Assembly (NCBI GenBank): GCA_011364925.1
Contig: RDOA01000061.1
Coordinates: 1-18,631, forward strand
Direction: 5' to 3'
Origin: Promethearchaeota archaeon
GTDB taxonomy: Archaea; Asgardarchaeota; Lokiarchaeia; Sigyniarchaeales; SOKP01
DNA: 18,631 nucleotides
In this document: piece by piece, positions 4,412-18,445 of the stretch
Position numbering within the stretch: position 1 is the stretch's first letter
Layout of the letters: every line of letters begins with the position of its first letter
Program-made: the position numbers and the translations under genes
The notes under the pieces: generated by a model
What the model was told of the DNA's origin: nothing
What the model saw: only the letters and a program-made list of their open reading frames with translations
The model's database searches: none

Positions 4412-7021
4412 TTAATTATCTAATTGCCCTGCTTTCTCAAACTTTATTTTATTTTTATTATCCATCGAAACTCTGATGATATCTCCTTCCAAGAAGTTAC
4501 CCTCTAATAATTCAAGGGATAAAGGATTCTGGATGTAATTCTGAATTGCTCTTTTCAAGGGACGAGCACCGAAATCTGGATCAAATCCTTTTTCCGCAAG
4601 GAACTCTTTCGTTTTTTCTGTGAGTTCTAATTTAATCTTGTGCTCAGCAAGGGTTTTATTTAGCTGTTTTATCTGAATATCAACAATATCCTTAATCTGT
4701 TCTTGTTTTAGGAAATTAAATATGACAATCTCGTCAATTCGATTTAAAAATTCGGGTTTAAAGTATTGCTTTAATACGTTTTGAAGCATTTCTGTGTTCT
4801 TCTCTTCATCTTGACTTCTTGATTCTAAAATGAATTGGCTACCAACATTGCTCGTCATAATTATTATTGTATTCTTGAAATCGACAGTTCTACCTTGTCC
4901 GTCTGTGAGACGCCCATCATCTAAGATCTGTAAGAGGATATTAAACACGTCAGCGTGCGCTTTTTCAATCTCGTCAAATAATAACACGGAATATGGTCTT
5001 CTCCTTACGGCTTCAGTGAGATATCCTCCTTCTTCGTAACCAACATATCCTGGAGGTGCTCCGATTAGGCGTGCTACGCTATGTCTTTCCATGAATTCTG
5101 ACATATCTATTCTAACCATGGCATTTTCGTTATCAAAGAGAAATTCCGCTAAAGCTTTAGCAGTTTCTGTTTTTCCAACTCCCGTAGGTCCCATAAAGAT
5201 AAAGGATCCAATAGGTCTATTTGGATCTTGTATACCTGCCCTAGCCCGCCTAATTGCGTTTGATATTTTTTCTAACGCTTGGTCCTGTCCGATCACCCGC
5301 TCCTTTAATCGATTTTCCATCTTTAATAACTTTTCGCGTTCACCCTCAAGCATTCTTGAGACGGGAATACCTGTCCATTGAGAGATAATTTTTGCGATAT
5401 CTTCGTCATCGACTTCTTGTTTCAGCATAGTTTTATTTTTTTGGATATTGGCAAGATTGGTATTATTCTCTTCTAGATCTTTCTTTAATTGATTTAAGAC
5501 TCCATAAGTAAGTTCTGCTGCTTTTCCTAAATCTCCCCGTTTTTCTGCTTTTTCGGCCTCTAATTTTGTTTGTTCCATCTGTTTTTTGATTTCGTTGATT
5601 TTTGTTATAATATCTTTCTCATTTTTCCATTGGATCTTGAGTTTATCGCTTTCTTCTTGTAAATTGTGTAACTCCTCGTCAAGTTTCTTCATTTTCTCTT
5701 GAATTGATTTATCGCTTTCTTTTTTTAACGCTTCCTTTTGAATCTCCAATTGAATTATTTTCCTTTCGATTTCGTCTATCTCTGTGGGCATACTATCAAT
5801 TTCTATTCTTAATCTCGAGGCAGCTTCATCCATTAGATCGATCGCTTTGTCCGGTAGAAACCTATCTGCAATGTAGCGATGAGATAATGTTACCGCCGCT
5901 ATAATCGCAGAATCAGTGATTCGAACTCCATGATGGATTTCGTACTTTTCTTTTAAACCTCGTAAAATTGCGATTGAATCCTCCACGCTAGGTTCTGCGA
6001 TGAAAACAGTTTGAAATCTTCGAGTTAATGCAGCATCCTTTTCGATGTATTTACGATATTCGTCTAAGGTTGTCGCTCCAATTGCTCTTAATTCGCCTCG
6101 AGCAAGCGCTGGTTTTAGCATGTTAGAAGCGTCAATTGCCCCTTGAGCGGCTCCCGCCCCAACTAGCGTATGCAACTCATCAATAAACAATATGTATTTT
6201 CCGGCTCCTTTTTCAATTTCTTTAATGAAAGCTTTCAATCTGTCCTCAAATTCACCGCGATATTTAGCTCCAGCAATCATGGCTGCTAAATCTAAGGCAA
6301 CTAAATCTTTATCTTTCAATGCCCCTGGTACATCGTTATTTGCTATTCGCTGAGCTAGGCCCTCGACTATTGCGGTTTTACCTACGCCAGCTTCTCCAAT
6401 TAAAACGGGGTTATTCTTAGTTCTGCGCGATAATATGTGCATCACACGCCGAATCTCGTCGTCTCTTCCTATAACAGGATCGATTTTTCCACGTCGCGCT
6501 AAATCTGTGAGATTTCTGCTATATTTCTGTATGGCTTGGTATTTACCTTCAGGATCTTGGTCGGTAACCGTTTGACTACCGCGAATACTCGCTAAAGCTT
6601 GCATAATTCTATCTTTTGTTATTCCATATTTGTTCATAATGTCCTTTATTGGTCTCGAATCCATCTGAGTAAAAGCAAGAATTAAGTGTTCTGTGCTTAA
6701 AAATTGATCTCGTAGCGTGTCTGCTTCCTTCCACGCAAGATTAAAAAGGTTGCTAGAGTTTGAACTTAGCACTGCTTCTGTCGCCCCGGCTCCTCTCACT
6801 TTTGGAAGTCTTTCTAATTCAGACTTTAAATCGCTGGATAACTGGTCTATATTCAATCCTAATTTTTGGTAAAGTGGTGTTGTAATTCCATCTTCCTGGT
6901 CAATTAAACTAATTAATAAATGTATTGGTTCGATTTGTTGATTGTCATTATTTTGAGCTAACGAGCGAGCAGCTATCAAGGCTTCTTGAACTTTTATGGT
7001 GAACTTATCAAATTTCATCAT
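4412..7021 (-). CDS. clpB: ATP-dependent chaperone/disaggregase ClpB (Hsp100)
   Basis: Clp N-domain (MKFDKFT...), NBD1 with [20 protein letters not shown] and [13 protein letters not shown], a long coiled-coil M domain, and NBD2 with [31 protein letters not shown] and FGARPLKR. Length 869 aa. Confidence 0.97.
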
Positions 7022-7027
7022 TTAAAA

Positions 7028-7032
7028 TCACC
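7028..7032 (-). promoter_or_regulatory. GGTGA Shine-Dalgarno of clpB
   Basis: The minus strand reads gGGTGAttttaaa-ATG region, placing GGTGA 6 nt before the ATG at 7021. GGTGA is the usual archaeal SD core. Confidence 0.65.
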
Positions 7033-7036
7033 CAAG

Positions 7037-7054
7037 ATTACAAAACCTTGTAAT
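7037..7054. repeat. Perfect inverted repeat ATTACAA-N4-TTGTAAT upstream of clpB (candidate operator)
   Basis: Read directly as attacaa aacc ttgtaat, between AT-rich TATA-like sequence (about 7062-7081) and the clpB SD. Confidence 0.5.
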
Positions 7055-7081
7055 TTTAAGTAAATAAAATTTCCTTATATT

Positions 7082-7978
7082 TTATTCCTTGCCTAATAAT
7101 CTATTAATTATATAGCTGATCCATAACCCTGGTTTTTTTGGGGTATCAAAATCTATCCACGCTGATTTCATGTAAGATATATCAGCTTGCCAGTATCCGT
7201 CTTTTCGTTGTTTCTTCCTCAGAATTTTTAAGGCATCGTTACAACGCTTATCTTCCATAAGCCCATTATCTTTGAGTAGTGATAAAATTTCTACTACATT
7301 TGATTTGTAGGTGTACGGATAGAAATTTTGGACGATGGAGTCTTCAATAGGCTCTCCCGTAGATAATTTCTTATAAACGCTATGTTTAAGAATATATTCT
7401 AAACCTTGTCTAAGCTTTATATCAAGTTTTTTTGGACTCTCAAATCGTTTTTTATATTCAGTAAGGGCAATCATTGACTTTATAACGCCATAATAGCATG
7501 GAACTGTTTTCATACAACCTCCAAACCTCGTGTAGAGATCTTTTCCAGGCCACTTGGATTCTATTCCTCTCTCAACAGATTGATATTCTATTATCCAGTT
7601 AATTCCAGAGTCGATCCTCGCTTTATCGTCATATTGCATCTTAATAAGTATTGTCGTAATCAAGGCATTATGGCACGCAAGTAGATGATCTTGCTCTCCT
7701 TCCAGTGCAAAGCCTTCTTGAATGTAAGATTTATCTACAAGAAGTTCAATCCATGTTTGAACTTTTTCTAGAGTGTGAGTAAAGGGAATTTCGGAGATCT
7801 CTAACAATCGCCATAAGTAGTTACGGAGACCAACGAAAGTGTTAGGTTTCCGTTCAGGAGTATCTAAAAGTTTGGGTAAAAGTTCAGATTGTTCAAGCAT
7901 TTTCTGAGCTTCACTAATAGTGATCCCATCTCCTCGTTCATAAGACTTTTTCAGCGATAATGCAGAATCCTCTTTCAT
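7082..7978 (-). CDS. Hypothetical alpha/alpha-toroid (prenyltransferase/terpene-cyclase-like repeat) protein
   Basis: Helical protein with QW-like repeats (GINWIIEYQ; LKILRKKQRKDGYW), PCYYGVIK and C-terminal KPGLWIS. No DxDD class II cyclase motif is present. Confidence 0.55.
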   Translation of the reverse strand: MKEDSALSLKKSYERGDGITISEAQKMLEQSELLPKLLDTPERKPNTFVGLRNYLWRLLEISEIPFTHTLEKVQTWIELLVDKSYIQEGFALEGEQDHLLACHNALITTILIKMQYDDKARIDSGINWIIEYQSVERGIESKWPGKDLYTRFGGCMKTVPCYYGVIKSMIALTEYKKRFESPKKLDIKLRQGLEYILKHSVYKKLSTGEPIEDSIVQNFYPYTYKSNVVEILSLLKDNGLMEDKRCNDALKILRKKQRKDGYWQADISYMKSAWIDFDTPKKPGLWISYIINRLLGKE

Positions 7979-8081
7979 AGTATAACAGATTACTTTGGTA
8001 TCAAATAAATAAATCTATAATATAAAATTAAATCGTTCGTTTATAATATCCAAACAATCCTCAATATGGAGTAAATTTCTA

Positions 8082-8765
8082 TTGACACCTAAAAAAAGAA
8101 AATCATTTCTTGATAAAAAGAAGAAATGTATTTTTGAGCCTCGAACGCTATGGAGAATAGCCAAGATGGCAACAGGGCACCCTACAAAAGAAGCTTTCGA
8201 TATAATAATTAAAAATTTAGATAAAGCTTATCCAGGTTATATAGAAACGAAACAAAATTGGATTTTTAATAACGCAGGTGGAGCTATGGGGCAAATGACA
8301 GTACTCCATGGGTCGTTGCGAGAATATATACTGTTATTCGGTACAAATCAAGGCACTGATGGACATTCAGGGAGATATAAGGCAGACGTATTTGATTTTA
8401 TCTTCAAAGGAGAAATGCTATGTGAATACGAAGGACAGTTCGAACGTAAAGTTCATAAACCTGGTTCTGCAGCTTATTTGCCCTCCAGTATGGTTAAACA
8501 TTATTGTATAAAAGACGAAGCTTGGATGCTAGAGTATGCTCGCGGTAATATCGTTTCAATGCTCCCATTTGGATTCGCAGATTCCTTATTAAGCACCCTT
8601 GATTACATTCCAGTTATGCGTACCATATGGCATTACGGTCGCTTAGTCGTTAGAAACCTATTTAAAAGAGGGAAAGACATTGGAATCGTGATTAAATGGA
8701 TTCTAATTATAGGAATAGGTATTTGGTTTGTCTTTTACGGAATTCCTTGGATTGCTAGAATATAA
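8082..8765 (+). CDS. ERG2/sigma-1 receptor family protein (sterol C8-C7 isomerase-like cupin) with a C-terminal TM helix
   Basis: WIFNNAGGAMGQMTVLHGSLREYILLFGT...GHSGRY...WMLEYARG...MLPFGFADSLLSTLDY matches, as recalled, yeast Erg2 (WVFNNAGGAMGQM..LHAS..EYLILFGT; MLPFGFLD...STLD) and human SIGMAR1 (GHSGRY; WMVEYGRG). TTG start with GGAG upstream. Confidence 0.92.
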   Translation: MTPKKRKSFLDKKKKCIFEPRTLWRIAKMATGHPTKEAFDIIIKNLDKAYPGYIETKQNWIFNNAGGAMGQMTVLHGSLREYILLFGTNQGTDGHSGRYKADVFDFIFKGEMLCEYEGQFERKVHKPGSAAYLPSSMVKHYCIKDEAWMLEYARGNIVSMLPFGFADSLLSTLDYIPVMRTIWHYGRLVVRNLFKRGKDIGIVIKWILIIGIGIWFVFYGIPWIARI

Positions 8766-8828: not shown

Positions 8829-10019
8829 TTAGAGTTTGTGAGAATCTAAACTGAATAGGGAGCTGCATCCCTTTCCAATAGAGGGGGTTAAGCGCCCAAT
8901 GACTCTGAATATAGCTCCTACTCTCCCACATTCTGGACACTGCTCCCAATTTTCCACTTGAACAATATCATCTAATAGTACAGCAACCCCAGCATAACTA
9001 TCTACACCATAGGGGGTTATGAGTTCTAAAATACCCGGTTCTCCCGTCGCTTTAATAGGTTCCAGAGATTCAACATCACGAATAACTATACGACCTTTTT
9101 CGTGGTTAACATGAAGAACAAAATCGTTATATCGCTTTGACCAATGACCACCACACGCTAACGGACTCTCAGTTGCGGCAAAATTATCGCAAAATTTATC
9201 CGTTGTAATGTGGAACATATCACACATTTGTTCGATAAATTCTTCTTTGTTTACATTATATCCTAACTTGACACGACCCTTGGTACCATCCCATCCTCCC
9301 CCGCCTGTAATAATATAGAAATGTTCACTTAAATCAAAGGTTCTATTTTCTTTTTGATAATAATCGTTTAATACTTTGTGCATCCATAGAGGGGAGTTTG
9401 CCATAATCGTTGGAATGCCTTTCCTTTCAATACGATTTAATTCAGATTTTAATAATTTTCCATTAATTCCAATAACAGCCCGAGCTTTTCGTGTGGTAAT
9501 CATTTTCCTGATTGTTTTCGCCAAGAAGAACTGTAATAAAAAGTTTACATTCTTTCCATCCCATATGTCTACAATACTCTTGTATAAAAGATACGCGTCC
9601 TTGCCGTGGAAATTATGGCGAATCTTATTAATAATTGCCATACCCGGAGCAAATAAGATTAAATTATTTACATCGTCCTTTTTTGAAAAAGAATTGAAAA
9701 CAGTGTTATAATTTTCCTTTAACACTTCAATGTCGCTATCCAATCGTCCAACGATGCTTGGATCGCCACAGGTGGAGGAGGATTCCATCCAAAAACTTAA
9801 TTTTTCAAAGGAATCTCCTCGTATCAAATTTTTGAATAAATTGTTAGATTGTTTAAAAAAACTCCAAGGAACATATGGAATTTCACCAAGGGCTGGCTCT
9901 TTCACAGTTGCATCGAAGTCATACTCAATATTAACACACTGTTTTTTATAAATTTCGCAATCACTTGCCGTTTCCCGCACTACTCTCGATAAATCTTCCA
10001 AAACTTTGCTCGAACTCAT
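8829..10019 (-). CDS. LuxE-like acyl-protein synthetase (long-chain fatty acid--protein ligase family)
   Basis: Adenylation P-loop-like SSSTCGDPS, TGGGGWDG, GILELITPY..SYAGVAVLLDD, CPECGRVG..FRVIGR and C-terminal GKGCS with the acyl-accepting Cys typical of LuxE. Confidence 0.8.
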   Translation of the reverse strand: MSSSKVLEDLSRVVRETASDCEIYKKQCVNIEYDFDATVKEPALGEIPYVPWSFFKQSNNLFKNLIRGDSFEKLSFWMESSSTCGDPSIVGRLDSDIEVLKENYNTVFNSFSKKDDVNNLILFAPGMAIINKIRHNFHGKDAYLLYKSIVDIWDGKNVNFLLQFFLAKTIRKMITTRKARAVIGINGKLLKSELNRIERKGIPTIMANSPLWMHKVLNDYYQKENRTFDLSEHFYIITGGGGWDGTKGRVKLGYNVNKEEFIEQMCDMFHITTDKFCDNFAATESPLACGGHWSKRYNDFVLHVNHEKGRIVIRDVESLEPIKATGEPGILELITPYGVDSYAGVAVLLDDIVQVENWEQCPECGRVGAIFRVIGRLTPSIGKGCSSLFSLDSHKL

Positions 10020-15523: not shown

Positions 15524-18445
15524 TTACACTTCACATCCCGTAAAGAAGACTTTATGACCGCTCGCGATTGCTATTCCTTTTTTCGAAATTGTAATCGTAA
15601 TTTTACCATCATCGTTCTTTCCTTTAAAAGTTTCGTGTTTTGTAGAAACATGATGTACGTAAATATCCCACGAAACTCGAAGATCGTCAATTCTAAGTTC
15701 GATAGTAGTAGCATTGATGTAAATCGCAGCATTATCGCCCCAACAACACCATCTACATGTTCCGATTCTACCCCATCCAACAAGCATACTATGACTCATC
15801 AACCAATCCACAGTCGGTTGACTCACTTGTTCTGCTGAATATTCACCAGAGTACACATCCAAGTGACCGTATCCCCAAAGATATATTCCTGTGAAATCTG
15901 GATTAGCAATACCGCGATTGAATTCACCAAAATAAGCTAGTCCCATCAACTCACTTGTAAAAGCGAGGATTGGAACATCAATCTCGCTATAATGGTCATC
16001 AAAGTCAAATGTTACGTACGGACAATTATCCCAGTCTCTTATTGCAGCGCTCTCGAGACTTAATCTTGAAGGCCAATATCTATCGAAAGTCGCATCAATG
16101 TGTATCATTACAGCGGGATCACCGAACCCTCCATAAATGTTACTAACAACACCAGGACCCCATGCCATATAAATCATAAATGCAGCCCACTCTTGTATAT
16201 TTGTCCACGGTAAAAGTGTAAGGGGATTTATTGTGGGTTCAAGGGGAGTTCCTAGAAATTCAGCTGGAGCTGTTGGATTTTGATCAGCATATTGCATGAC
16301 AAACTTTGATCCGGGAGAACCTCCTACTTCACTAGACCAACTACCCCCTGCTATCATTCCAGCAATCACAGCCGGTAGGTTAAACGAGTTAGTTCTATCT
16401 TCGGGGTCTATGGTTCCTCCTGTTCCACCATCCCGTAATAATAATCCTTTGAGATCTTCTTTCCAATACACCGATGCATAATTCATAGCTGCACTCCCTC
16501 CAAAACTATCACCTGCTAAATATACTCTCTTAGCCCCAGATACGGCTTTAGCTAATTCTATTGCTTCTTTTATATCGCTAATCCACTGGTCCCAACCCCA
16601 ATAGGCCATAAAGCCAAGATCAGGAGGATTCAAGTATTGATTTACAAAGTGGGTTCTATAATCTATTGCATAGACGTCAAAATTTCTATTTGCAAGGTAG
16701 AAAGCGAAACTATGATCCTCAGTGTGCGTCCACCAATCTTCAGGTGGATTTGAAGTTAATTGTTCACCATTACTCCAAGTTCCTGGTAGGACGAATACTA
16801 CTCCTTCTGGTTCAATACCAGCTTTCACTAATCTGTGTAAACCAATTTTATCGTAAGGACCAAAAGGAGGTACTTCTAACTCCCATATATCTTCTCTCAA
16901 GTCGGGATACGCTTTTACGCTCCTATCATCTATGGTCATATCCCATTTCATCAAAGCTACTGGAGTATCGTCAACTTTATCGATAATATCTCTTAAGGCT
17001 TTAGTTGTAGGCACTAAAGCATCTTTTTGGACGGTCTCTGGAGTATCCATATTAGTGAATTGAGGAGCATTGTGACCAATTAGGTGAAAAGTTGGTATTC
17101 CAATAGCATCGAATAAACCACCCTCTCCAGGTGCGTTAGGAAAGAGACCTCCGGAAGCAGGTTGAATGGACGTACGATCGAGATCGTTATCAACAACAGC
17201 ATCAATAGCAAAATCTAATAAATAGGGGTTTCCTGATCCTGGCAATCCTGATACAAATAGCGCTCTTGGAGAAATTAAACCAGTCGCGACAAATTCTCCC
17301 CCTACAATCTTATATTGTTTTGAAATCATCTCAACGCTAACAGCAGCAACAATTTTATCCTGTATCGCAGCTATCTGTGGGCAGAGCTCTAACAACGGAG
17401 GGCGTTTACCAAAATGACTTGATAATGTAAGAAAGATTAAAGATCTTTCTCTCTGATACCACGGAATTTTGGAGTAGTATTTAGCTAAAGCCATAACTAC
17501 TGACGCTCCTGAACCTTCGTTTGTCGCCCATCCATCATGATGAGAAACGACTACGATGGTTTCATCTGATTTTCCAGGTAAAAATCCATATACATTGAAA
17601 GTTTCTCCTATTCCTGCATACCCAGTCAAAACAATTGTTGCTTCAACTGGAGTTCCACCCAATAGCAAACTCCTCAATTCGTTACCGTCATTTGGACTTA
17701 TATAAACTCCTGGAATAGAAGTTTCTACATATGCGTGTAAATATTGATGAATATCATTAGCTGTGAATGTAAGTATTCCAACAAACCCAGCAGCGTCATA
17801 CCCGGCGGCTAAATCGTACGCACTGTTAATATTAGCTACTGGCCAATTTTCAGTAATCTTATCTCCCGCCAAATTGTTATCCGGATCGTAAGTATATAAA
17901 TCAAACAAGTCAAGCGCTGCCATTGGAATGCCGGGAGCAATCAAATCTACAACGACTATTTTTCCTGCAACACCACTAGCACTATCGGCTGCCGCAAAAT
18001 CGTCTGCAGATCCTATTCCTACATAAATCATTTCACCACTAACTCCTCCTGAAGGAGTGAACCCAGCATAACGAACAAAACCACATGGGATTGATGTATC
18101 TACTCCATCTACATGTGTTGTTAAACTCCATACATCTGGAAAGCATACTTCTATTGCTACAGGTTCGAGTAACGTATCTTGTAATCCAAATTTATCAAAT
18201 TTATTTAAAACATAATTTGCACCTTCAATATCCGCTGGTGTTCCTGGCATTCGGTAGCCATAGCGGCCCTGATCGCCTATTTCCCATAAATCCTCTATCC
18301 ATCCGAAAATCTCATCCTCTGAGGGAATTTTTGATTTCTTGCCTTTACCAGAACCACCACACGAACTTGCTGGTGATACAAACGCAAAAATCCCTAGAAA
18401 CAAGACAACTACTATAAAATAAATCTTTAATTTTTTAGTTTGCAT
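15524..18445 (-). CDS. Secreted multidomain hydrolase: signal peptide, PA-domain M28-like metallopeptidase, alpha/beta hydrolase and small C-terminal beta domain
   Basis: N-terminal KK plus hydrophobic signal. RMPGTPAD, PA insert (GEMIYVGIG...VAGKIVVVD), NVYGFLPGKSDETIVVVSHHD and RSLIFL mark the M28-like part. From about aa 499: VFVLPGTW, FDVYAIDYRTH, nucleophile AGDSFGG and GYGHLDVY. A GAGG SD is upstream. Confidence 0.8.
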   Translation of the reverse strand: MQTKKLKIYFIVVVLFLGIFAFVSPASSCGGSGKGKKSKIPSEDEIFGWIEDLWEIGDQGRYGYRMPGTPADIEGANYVLNKFDKFGLQDTLLEPVAIEVCFPDVWSLTTHVDGVDTSIPCGFVRYAGFTPSGGVSGEMIYVGIGSADDFAAADSASGVAGKIVVVDLIAPGIPMAALDLFDLYTYDPDNNLAGDKITENWPVANINSAYDLAAGYDAAGFVGILTFTANDIHQYLHAYVETSIPGVYISPNDGNELRSLLLGGTPVEATIVLTGYAGIGETFNVYGFLPGKSDETIVVVSHHDGWATNEGSGASVVMALAKYYSKIPWYQRERSLIFLTLSSHFGKRPPLLELCPQIAAIQDKIVAAVSVEMISKQYKIVGGEFVATGLISPRALFVSGLPGSGNPYLLDFAIDAVVDNDLDRTSIQPASGGLFPNAPGEGGLFDAIGIPTFHLIGHNAPQFTNMDTPETVQKDALVPTTKALRDIIDKVDDTPVALMKWDMTIDDRSVKAYPDLREDIWELEVPPFGPYDKIGLHRLVKAGIEPEGVVFVLPGTWSNGEQLTSNPPEDWWTHTEDHSFAFYLANRNFDVYAIDYRTHFVNQYLNPPDLGFMAYWGWDQWISDIKEAIELAKAVSGAKRVYLAGDSFGGSAAMNYASVYWKEDLKGLLLRDGGTGGTIDPEDRTNSFNLPAVIAGMIAGGSWSSEVGGSPGSKFVMQYADQNPTAPAEFLGTPLEPTINPLTLLPWTNIQEWAAFMIYMAWGPGVVSNIYGGFGDPAVMIHIDATFDRYWPSRLSLESAAIRDWDNCPYVTFDFDDHYSEIDVPILAFTSELMGLAYFGEFNRGIANPDFTGIYLWGYGHLDVYSGEYSAEQVSQPTVDWLMSHSMLVGWGRIGTCRWCCWGDNAAIYINATTIELRIDDLRVSWDIYVHHVSTKHETFKGKNDDGKITITISKKGIAIASGHKVFFTGCEV

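Follow-up and report, generated by a model that had tools for sequence, protein, structure and literature searches.

A gene of the ERG2/sigma-1 family in a Lokiarchaeia genome raises the question of what such a protein does in an archaeon, and whether it bears on the origin of eukaryotic sterol handling. The gene occupies positions 8082..8765 (+ strand) of the window, the whole 18,631-nucleotide stretch of DNA that was analysed, which is the entire contig C73 of a 3.9-Mb assembly (genome G000; 100% complete, 4.2% contamination). The open reading frame is intact and complete and encodes 227 amino acids. It begins with a TTG codon, at the same position as the starts of aligned homologues, and a GGAG sequence 10 nt before the TTG (8068..8071, + strand) is a putative ribosome-binding site. 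The host genome carries a single copy.

The profile search matched Pfam PF04622 (ERG2_Sigma1R) with 213.7 bits and an E value of 2.4e-63, against a curated cut-off of 21 bits; the match covered residues 12-195 and profile positions 18-208 of 210. All of the solved sigma-1 receptors in the PDB were matched at E values of 1e-31 to 1e-29. The AlphaFold2 model of the protein (mean pLDDT 92.6) contained a cupin-like barrel closed by two helices, the core encoded by 8115..8666 (+), and it could be overlaid on human sigma-1 (5HK1) with an rmsd of 1.6 Å over 180 columns (Foldseek E value 2.5e-21). The family membership that the initial annotation had read from the DNA was thus confirmed, and NCBI and JGI annotations already name such Asgard genes ERG2 family. 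The gene is under purifying selection: the copies in two other ERG2-bearing genomes (G017 and G010) gave a dN of 0.087 and a dS of 0.854 (dN/dS about 0.10), and the window gene compared with its congeners gave pN values of 0.14-0.18 with pS saturated.

The pocket and the membrane anchor

The residue equivalences given in the initial annotation also held in the alignment. E81-Y82 (8322..8327, +) correspond to human sigma-1 E102-Y103, D105 (8394..8396, +) to D126, and E151 (8532..8534, +) to E172, which is E174 of yeast Erg2 and is invariant in the family; E151 is a candidate catalytic acid/base. At the position of D105 the fungal ERG2 proteins have Phe, with an Asp two residues earlier. Y141 (8502..8504, +) lies in a column where every fungal ERG2 and bacterial member sampled has Tyr and animal sigma-1 has Val. 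Progesterone is contacted by 11 residues in Xenopus sigma-1 (PMC11224282), and eight of these are identical in the archaeal protein, the other three being smaller (W to A68, L to V74, A to G164). At 16 alignment columns fungal ERG2 and animal sigma-1 differ consistently, and here the archaeal protein showed the fungal state in 7, the animal state in 3 and neither in 6; where animal sigma-1 has W89, H154, V162, W164, T181 and A185, it has A68, L133, Y141, I143, M160 and G164. The same signature (N, A, L, Y, M and G, with the equivalents of D126 and E172) was detected in 65 anchor-less prokaryotic-type sequences. The mixture of Erg2-like and sigma-1-like features that had drawn attention to the gene is present, but it is the usual state of these 65 homologues and is therefore no mark of an intermediate. 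Judged from the alignment, the fungal-like pocket is the general prokaryotic state, and may be ancestral rather than evidence of a sterol substrate.

The architecture of the protein is different from that of its eukaryotic relatives, which have an N-terminal transmembrane helix; the common prokaryotic form of about 185 aa has none. An N-terminal membrane anchor like that of fungal ERG2 is absent here (maximum N-terminal hydropathy 0.15), and the eukaryotic helix is replaced by a Lys/Arg-rich stretch with no hydrophobic segment (residues 4-15; 8091..8126, +). At the other end, the alignment and the model showed a transmembrane helix at residues 200-226 (8679..8759, +), with a hydropathy of 2.47, which comes after a basic stretch and directly after the last core helix, and which is the mark of a subfamily. 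The initial annotation mentioned neither the missing N-terminal helix nor the C-terminal one. The tail-anchored form is a new architectural variant of a known family. Because there is no signal peptide and basic residues precede the helix, the barrel probably lies on the cytoplasmic side of the membrane. A model of three copies scored 0.94, compared with 0.00 for the best control, with at least 97% of contacts agreeing between runs and a pLDDT of at least 86; among solved structures, 20 of 30 homo-pairs and 1 of 23 single chains attained the mark for this score. The predicted trimer may reflect memory of the sigma-1 trimer, and as that trimer has already been solved, the model shows likeness and not binding.

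Sterol context and proposed function

In the complete host genome we found no squalene synthase, squalene epoxidase, triterpene cyclase or EBP, and no full ERG24, the sole trace being a weak C-terminal PF01222 match below the cut-off. A KstD-like ring dehydrogenase was not seen in the host either; its two strong PF00890 matches read as NadB and SdhA. Sterol synthesis genes were not seen in the Asgard hosts or the spirochaete tested, and no sterol gene adjoined ERG2 at any Asgard ERG2 locus examined. PMC8237579 describes the steroid precursor pathway as missing from most archaea, Asgard included.

The host carries a steroid 5-alpha-reductase-like gene (E value 3e-76 to PDB 7C83). Such a gene is present in 7 of the 9 ERG2-bearing genomes and in 106 of 400 genomes overall, with the strong matches concentrated in a few families, and the overlap is weak given kinship: family or genus frequencies would predict about 5.6 of 9, and of the four ERG2-bearing genus members three have a common insertion site. 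At the host locus (L068; positions 44622-46304 of contig C27) the gene is followed by a second, weaker member of its family. Co-occurrence of ERG24 with ERG2 in Asgard genomes was considered and rejected, full-length genes being found in another Asgard genus, g41, and in none of the nine ERG2 genomes. The g41 loci (L026-L036, e.g. L028:1513-2640) hold near full-length ERG4/ERG24-family reductase genes in about 11 genomes; the products are about 375 aa long (Pfam E value 3.5e-70). In one spirochaete (L008) the ERG2 member lies directly upstream of a full ERG4/ERG24 gene (E value 4e-128). This neighbour was found in one of six spirochaete-group genomes, the other five having no match to that query, and squalene synthase and epoxidase were not found in the L008 genome. 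The same locus (L008:4281-8092) has a tocopherol-cyclase-like gene divergent from the ERG2 and ERG4/ERG24 pair.

Our best reading is that the gene encodes an accessory, membrane-bound member of the ERG2/sigma-1 family maintained by purifying selection. The chances appear even that the protein works as a trimer, held in the membrane by its tail, and isomerizes a scavenged sterol or steroid taken up from the bilayer, with E151 moving a ring double bond. Three copies would form a sigma-1-like trimer, the tail helix would hold the barrel against the cytoplasmic membrane face, and a steroid-like lipid, coming from the bilayer, would pass between the two closing helices. E151, aided by D105 and Y82, would then add and remove protons to shift the ring double bond, in the manner of fungal ERG2. 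The most likely substrate would be a sterol or steroid scavenged from the organic matter of the sediment. The papers searched contained no assay of any prokaryotic family member. Turnover of sterols by the protein, if it occurs, would mean that anaerobic archaea and bacteria of sediments are able to rework sterols that they scavenge, which would bear on the change of sterol biomarkers during burial and on whether Asgard cells dealt with sterols that they were unable to make.

One could also envisage a protein that binds lipids or amines without catalysis and serves, like animal sigma-1, as a carrier, sensor or membrane scaffold. We consider this unlikely. It would agree with the lack of pathway context and with the sigma-1 arrangement of D105 and E151, kept here in place of the fungal Asp two residues earlier, and animal sigma-1, with the same fold, has no detectable isomerase activity (bioRxiv 10.1101/333765). 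However, the pocket residues that are altered in animal sigma-1 (W89, V162, T181, A185 and H154) are all in the fungal state in the archaeal protein, and D126 is also kept in sequences labelled Myxococcales. With its fungal-type pocket and sigma-1-type Asp/Glu pair, the protein is also a small prokaryotic model for asking what makes ERG2, but not sigma-1, an enzyme.

It seems rather improbable that the protein isomerizes a non-sterol isoprenoid of the cell or its partners, such as an unsaturated archaeal lipid chain or a cyclic terpenoid. The failure to see sterol synthesis genes in its hosts is consistent with such a substrate, as is the divergent neighbouring gene at 7082-7978 (- strand; 298 aa), which resembles prenyltransferase/alpha-toroid clusters often misnamed NifH. 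This neighbour, however, had no Pfam, NCBIfam or PDB match and no DXDD motif, was unlinked to ERG2 at every other locus examined, and has a homologue in G017 that lies on a different contig from ERG2. Moreover, an enzyme of membrane lipids should be commoner among congeners than 4 of 42, and the steroid-contacting residues are kept.

Distribution, descent and host contig

The family was detected in 9 of 400 genomes of the phylum and in 4 of 42 genomes of the genus, as three sequence types. Type A, to which the 8082-8765 gene belongs, was found in five genomes of the phylum, all Lokiarchaeia; type B (G122 and G127) and type C (G036 and G072) are both 42-48% identical to the window protein. Outside the archaea, type A is present in Spirochaetota (6 of 81 genomes around one spirochaete MAG) and in Brooklawnia, and many bacterial family members exist. 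With members in only 9 of 400 genomes and many in bacteria, the distribution is not that of an Asgard eukaryotic signature protein. One bacterial sequence, P0509 (cluster of P0079), is an anchor-less ERG2 family protein of Mycobacterium malmoense. Plasmid and phage collections gave no match to the gene.

A pan-Asgard spread, suggested by the NCBI labels 'Thorarchaeota', 'Hodarchaeota' and 'Heimdallarchaeota' on close homologues, was rejected on inspection of the contigs. P0013 lies within a same-genus genome despite its non-Loki label, and in L046 and L047 the majority of neighbouring genes encode proteins with 44-79% identity to those of the host, the gene order of L047 also being the same. 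Genes of L013, L046 and L047, which bear the names Heimdall-, Thor- and Hodarchaeota, are close to those of the host, and these labels or bins look wrong; the label 'Hermodarchaeota' on a protein in the same 90% cluster as the window protein is likewise doubted. L046 also has four unannotated tandem paralogues of about 100 aa adjoining ERG2 (6715-7916).

A conserved gene cluster around ERG2 was sought and rejected, as the neighbours differ in every lineage, and the insertion sites differ even within the genus. A radical SAM/alkylation-repair site carries ERG2 in G017 and G010, and on the assembled side in G012 and L047 too, and is empty in the host. The clpB-luxE slot, which is the ERG2 site in the host, holds another gene in G013, and a related public contig is without luxE and the VOC gene at the ERG2 locus. 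The clpB gene of the window (4412-7021, -) encodes a ClpB chaperone above the TIGR03346 cut-off and is widespread in the genus, at 72-84% nucleotide identity, and the luxE gene (8829-10019, -), which has three paralogues in other parts of the genome, encodes a distant LuxE-like acyl-protein synthetase. Farther away are a gene for a 973-aa protein with a hydrophobic N-terminus and an M28-like peptidase region joined to an alpha/beta hydrolase region (15524-18445, -), and a HerA-like ATPase gene (3-2135, +); before the latter lies the 3' end of a putative gene for a NurA-type nuclease, truncated at the contig edge.

A tree of 107 sequences and 181 columns (LG+C20+F+G4) united the tail-anchored proteins of Lokiarchaeia, spirochaetes and Brooklawnia in one clade (support 100/96). 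P0030 and P0036 are basal in this subfamily, and bacterial members lie between them and the other type-A sequences; the contig of P0030 is archaeal, and its SepSecS shares 45-57% identity with the SepSecS of every Lokiarchaeia family tested. The remaining ten type-A sequences (100/97) divide by host family where the hosts are known. As the Lokiarchaeia branches follow the host families, the gene is likely to be old. Monophyly of the 12 Lokiarchaeia type-A sequences was not rejected (p = 0.28): by the branching order, the gene would either be old in Lokiarchaeia and have passed to bacteria, or have entered twice. Inference of a donor is limited, since many prokaryotic rows of the tree carry no taxonomic label. 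We suggest that Lokiarchaeia have long carried the tail-anchored subfamily, that most genomes have since lost it, that it has changed loci, and that one or more exchanges with anaerobic bacteria (Spirochaetota and Brooklawnia) took place.

The eukaryotic sequences fell into two separate groups. One is of fungal type and sits with anchor-less 185-187-aa forms (100/99); the other is a sigma-1-like clade (100/100), outside which the window protein lies. A sister relationship of the subfamily to fungal ERG2 was rejected (p-AU 0.0007). None of 1000 bootstrap trees united the three Asgard types in a single clade. An AU test that joined all Asgard with all eukaryotic sequences (p = 1e-8) was set aside as confounded, because the eukaryotes themselves form two clades. 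The relevance to the origin of eukaryotic sterol handling that the initial annotation had raised is thus unsupported: the gene is rare in the phylum, the Asgard types are not one clade, and the nearest relatives are those of spirochaetes and Brooklawnia; beside this, a link of the subfamily to the sigma-1-like clade was not rejected. The other reading offered there, a horizontal acquisition used on environmental sterols, fits better of the two, but not as a recent isolated transfer, as the gene is resident in several Lokiarchaeia lineages under purifying selection.

That the Asgard gene survives from a lineage that gave eukaryotes their sigma-1-type gene is very improbable. Grouping the subfamily with the sigma-1-like clade (animals, Galdieria and others) costs 2.1 log-likelihood units and was not rejected (p-AU 0.47), since the backbone of the tree lacks resolution; the Lokiarchaeia sequences alone with that clade gave p = 0.06, and the agreement of branches with host families speaks for age. 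Nevertheless, the grouping appeared in 0 of 1000 bootstrap trees, the sister always being other prokaryotic sequences. The family is also sparse and of three types in the phylum, the anchor is at the opposite end, and identity to the animal proteins is 37%, compared with 53% to anchor-less prokaryotic forms. Lokiarchaeia are, in addition, not the group usually placed beside eukaryotes. The fungal branch is rejected and groups with the anchor-less forms. PMC8237579 favours a bacterial source of sterol genes and describes ERG2 evolution as complex, with a myxobacterial source inconclusive. It would be a long shot that the subfamily arose early in Lokiarchaeia, passed to spirochaetes and actinobacteria, and is sister to the eukaryotic sigma-1-type lineage; if so, an Asgard steroid-handling membrane protein would predate the eukaryotic acquisition of sterol synthesis, and the ERG2 and sigma-1 of eukaryotes would derive from two different prokaryotic sources. 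The view of a bacterial origin of eukaryotic sterol synthesis is unchanged at present. The literature searched, whose coverage is incomplete, yielded no paper on archaeal ERG2 genes or the tail-anchored form, and none that treated Asgard archaea together with the sigma-1 receptor.

The host genome belongs to Lokiarchaeia, and the contig is native to it, as the initial annotation had supposed of an Asgard host. A mis-binned or chimeric bacterial contig, which the 4.2% contamination, the absence of a ribosomal marker from the contig and the piecewise cover of the ERG2 locus by public contigs from sediment runs (none spanning the whole locus) might suggest, is refuted in practice: the remaining contig genes match same-genus genomes (best hits at 71-85% nucleotide identity), the tetranucleotide distance of the contig ranks 115th of 169 genome slices and the codon use of the ERG2 gene is ordinary for the host, copies 69-75% identical lie near S19e, L31e, EMG1 and eIF6 in same-genus genomes, and the junction of the ERG2 3' end with luxE recurs, with 34 differences, on a public contig from a related strain.

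Comparison with known family members

Fungal C-8 sterol isomerase ERG2 belongs to the same family, PF04622, with about 40% identity in the core, and shares with the archaeal protein the invariant Glu (E151, yeast E174) and N63, A68, L133, Y141, M160 and G164. Unlike fungal ERG2, the archaeal protein has a C-terminal helix instead of an N-terminal anchor, carries its second carboxylate at the sigma-1 position, comes from a host in which no sterol pathway was found, and is not its sister. Animal sigma-1 (SIGMAR1; PDB 5HK1, 7W2B and 8W4B) has the same fold (rmsd 1.3-1.6 Å), the equivalents of E102, Y103, D126 and E172, 8 of 11 progesterone contacts and the trimer that is predicted here. In contrast, identity to it is about 37%, W89, H154, V162, W164, T181 and A185 are lacking, the anchor is at the opposite end, and receptor or chaperone function is without evidence in the archaeal protein.

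The prokaryotic relatives are closer. The anchor-less 'ERG2 family proteins' of about 185 aa (Myxococcales, Deltaproteobacteria and Mycobacterium malmoense) have a nearly identical pocket signature and 50-58% identity to the window protein; they stop after the last core helix, whereas the window protein adds the basic N-terminus and the transmembrane tail. The tail-anchored ERG2 proteins of Spirochaetota/Leptospirales MAGs and Brooklawnia have the same architecture, form one clade with the archaeal protein (100/96) and are 55-63% identical to it; their hosts are bacteria, and one of them adjoins an ERG4/ERG24 gene.
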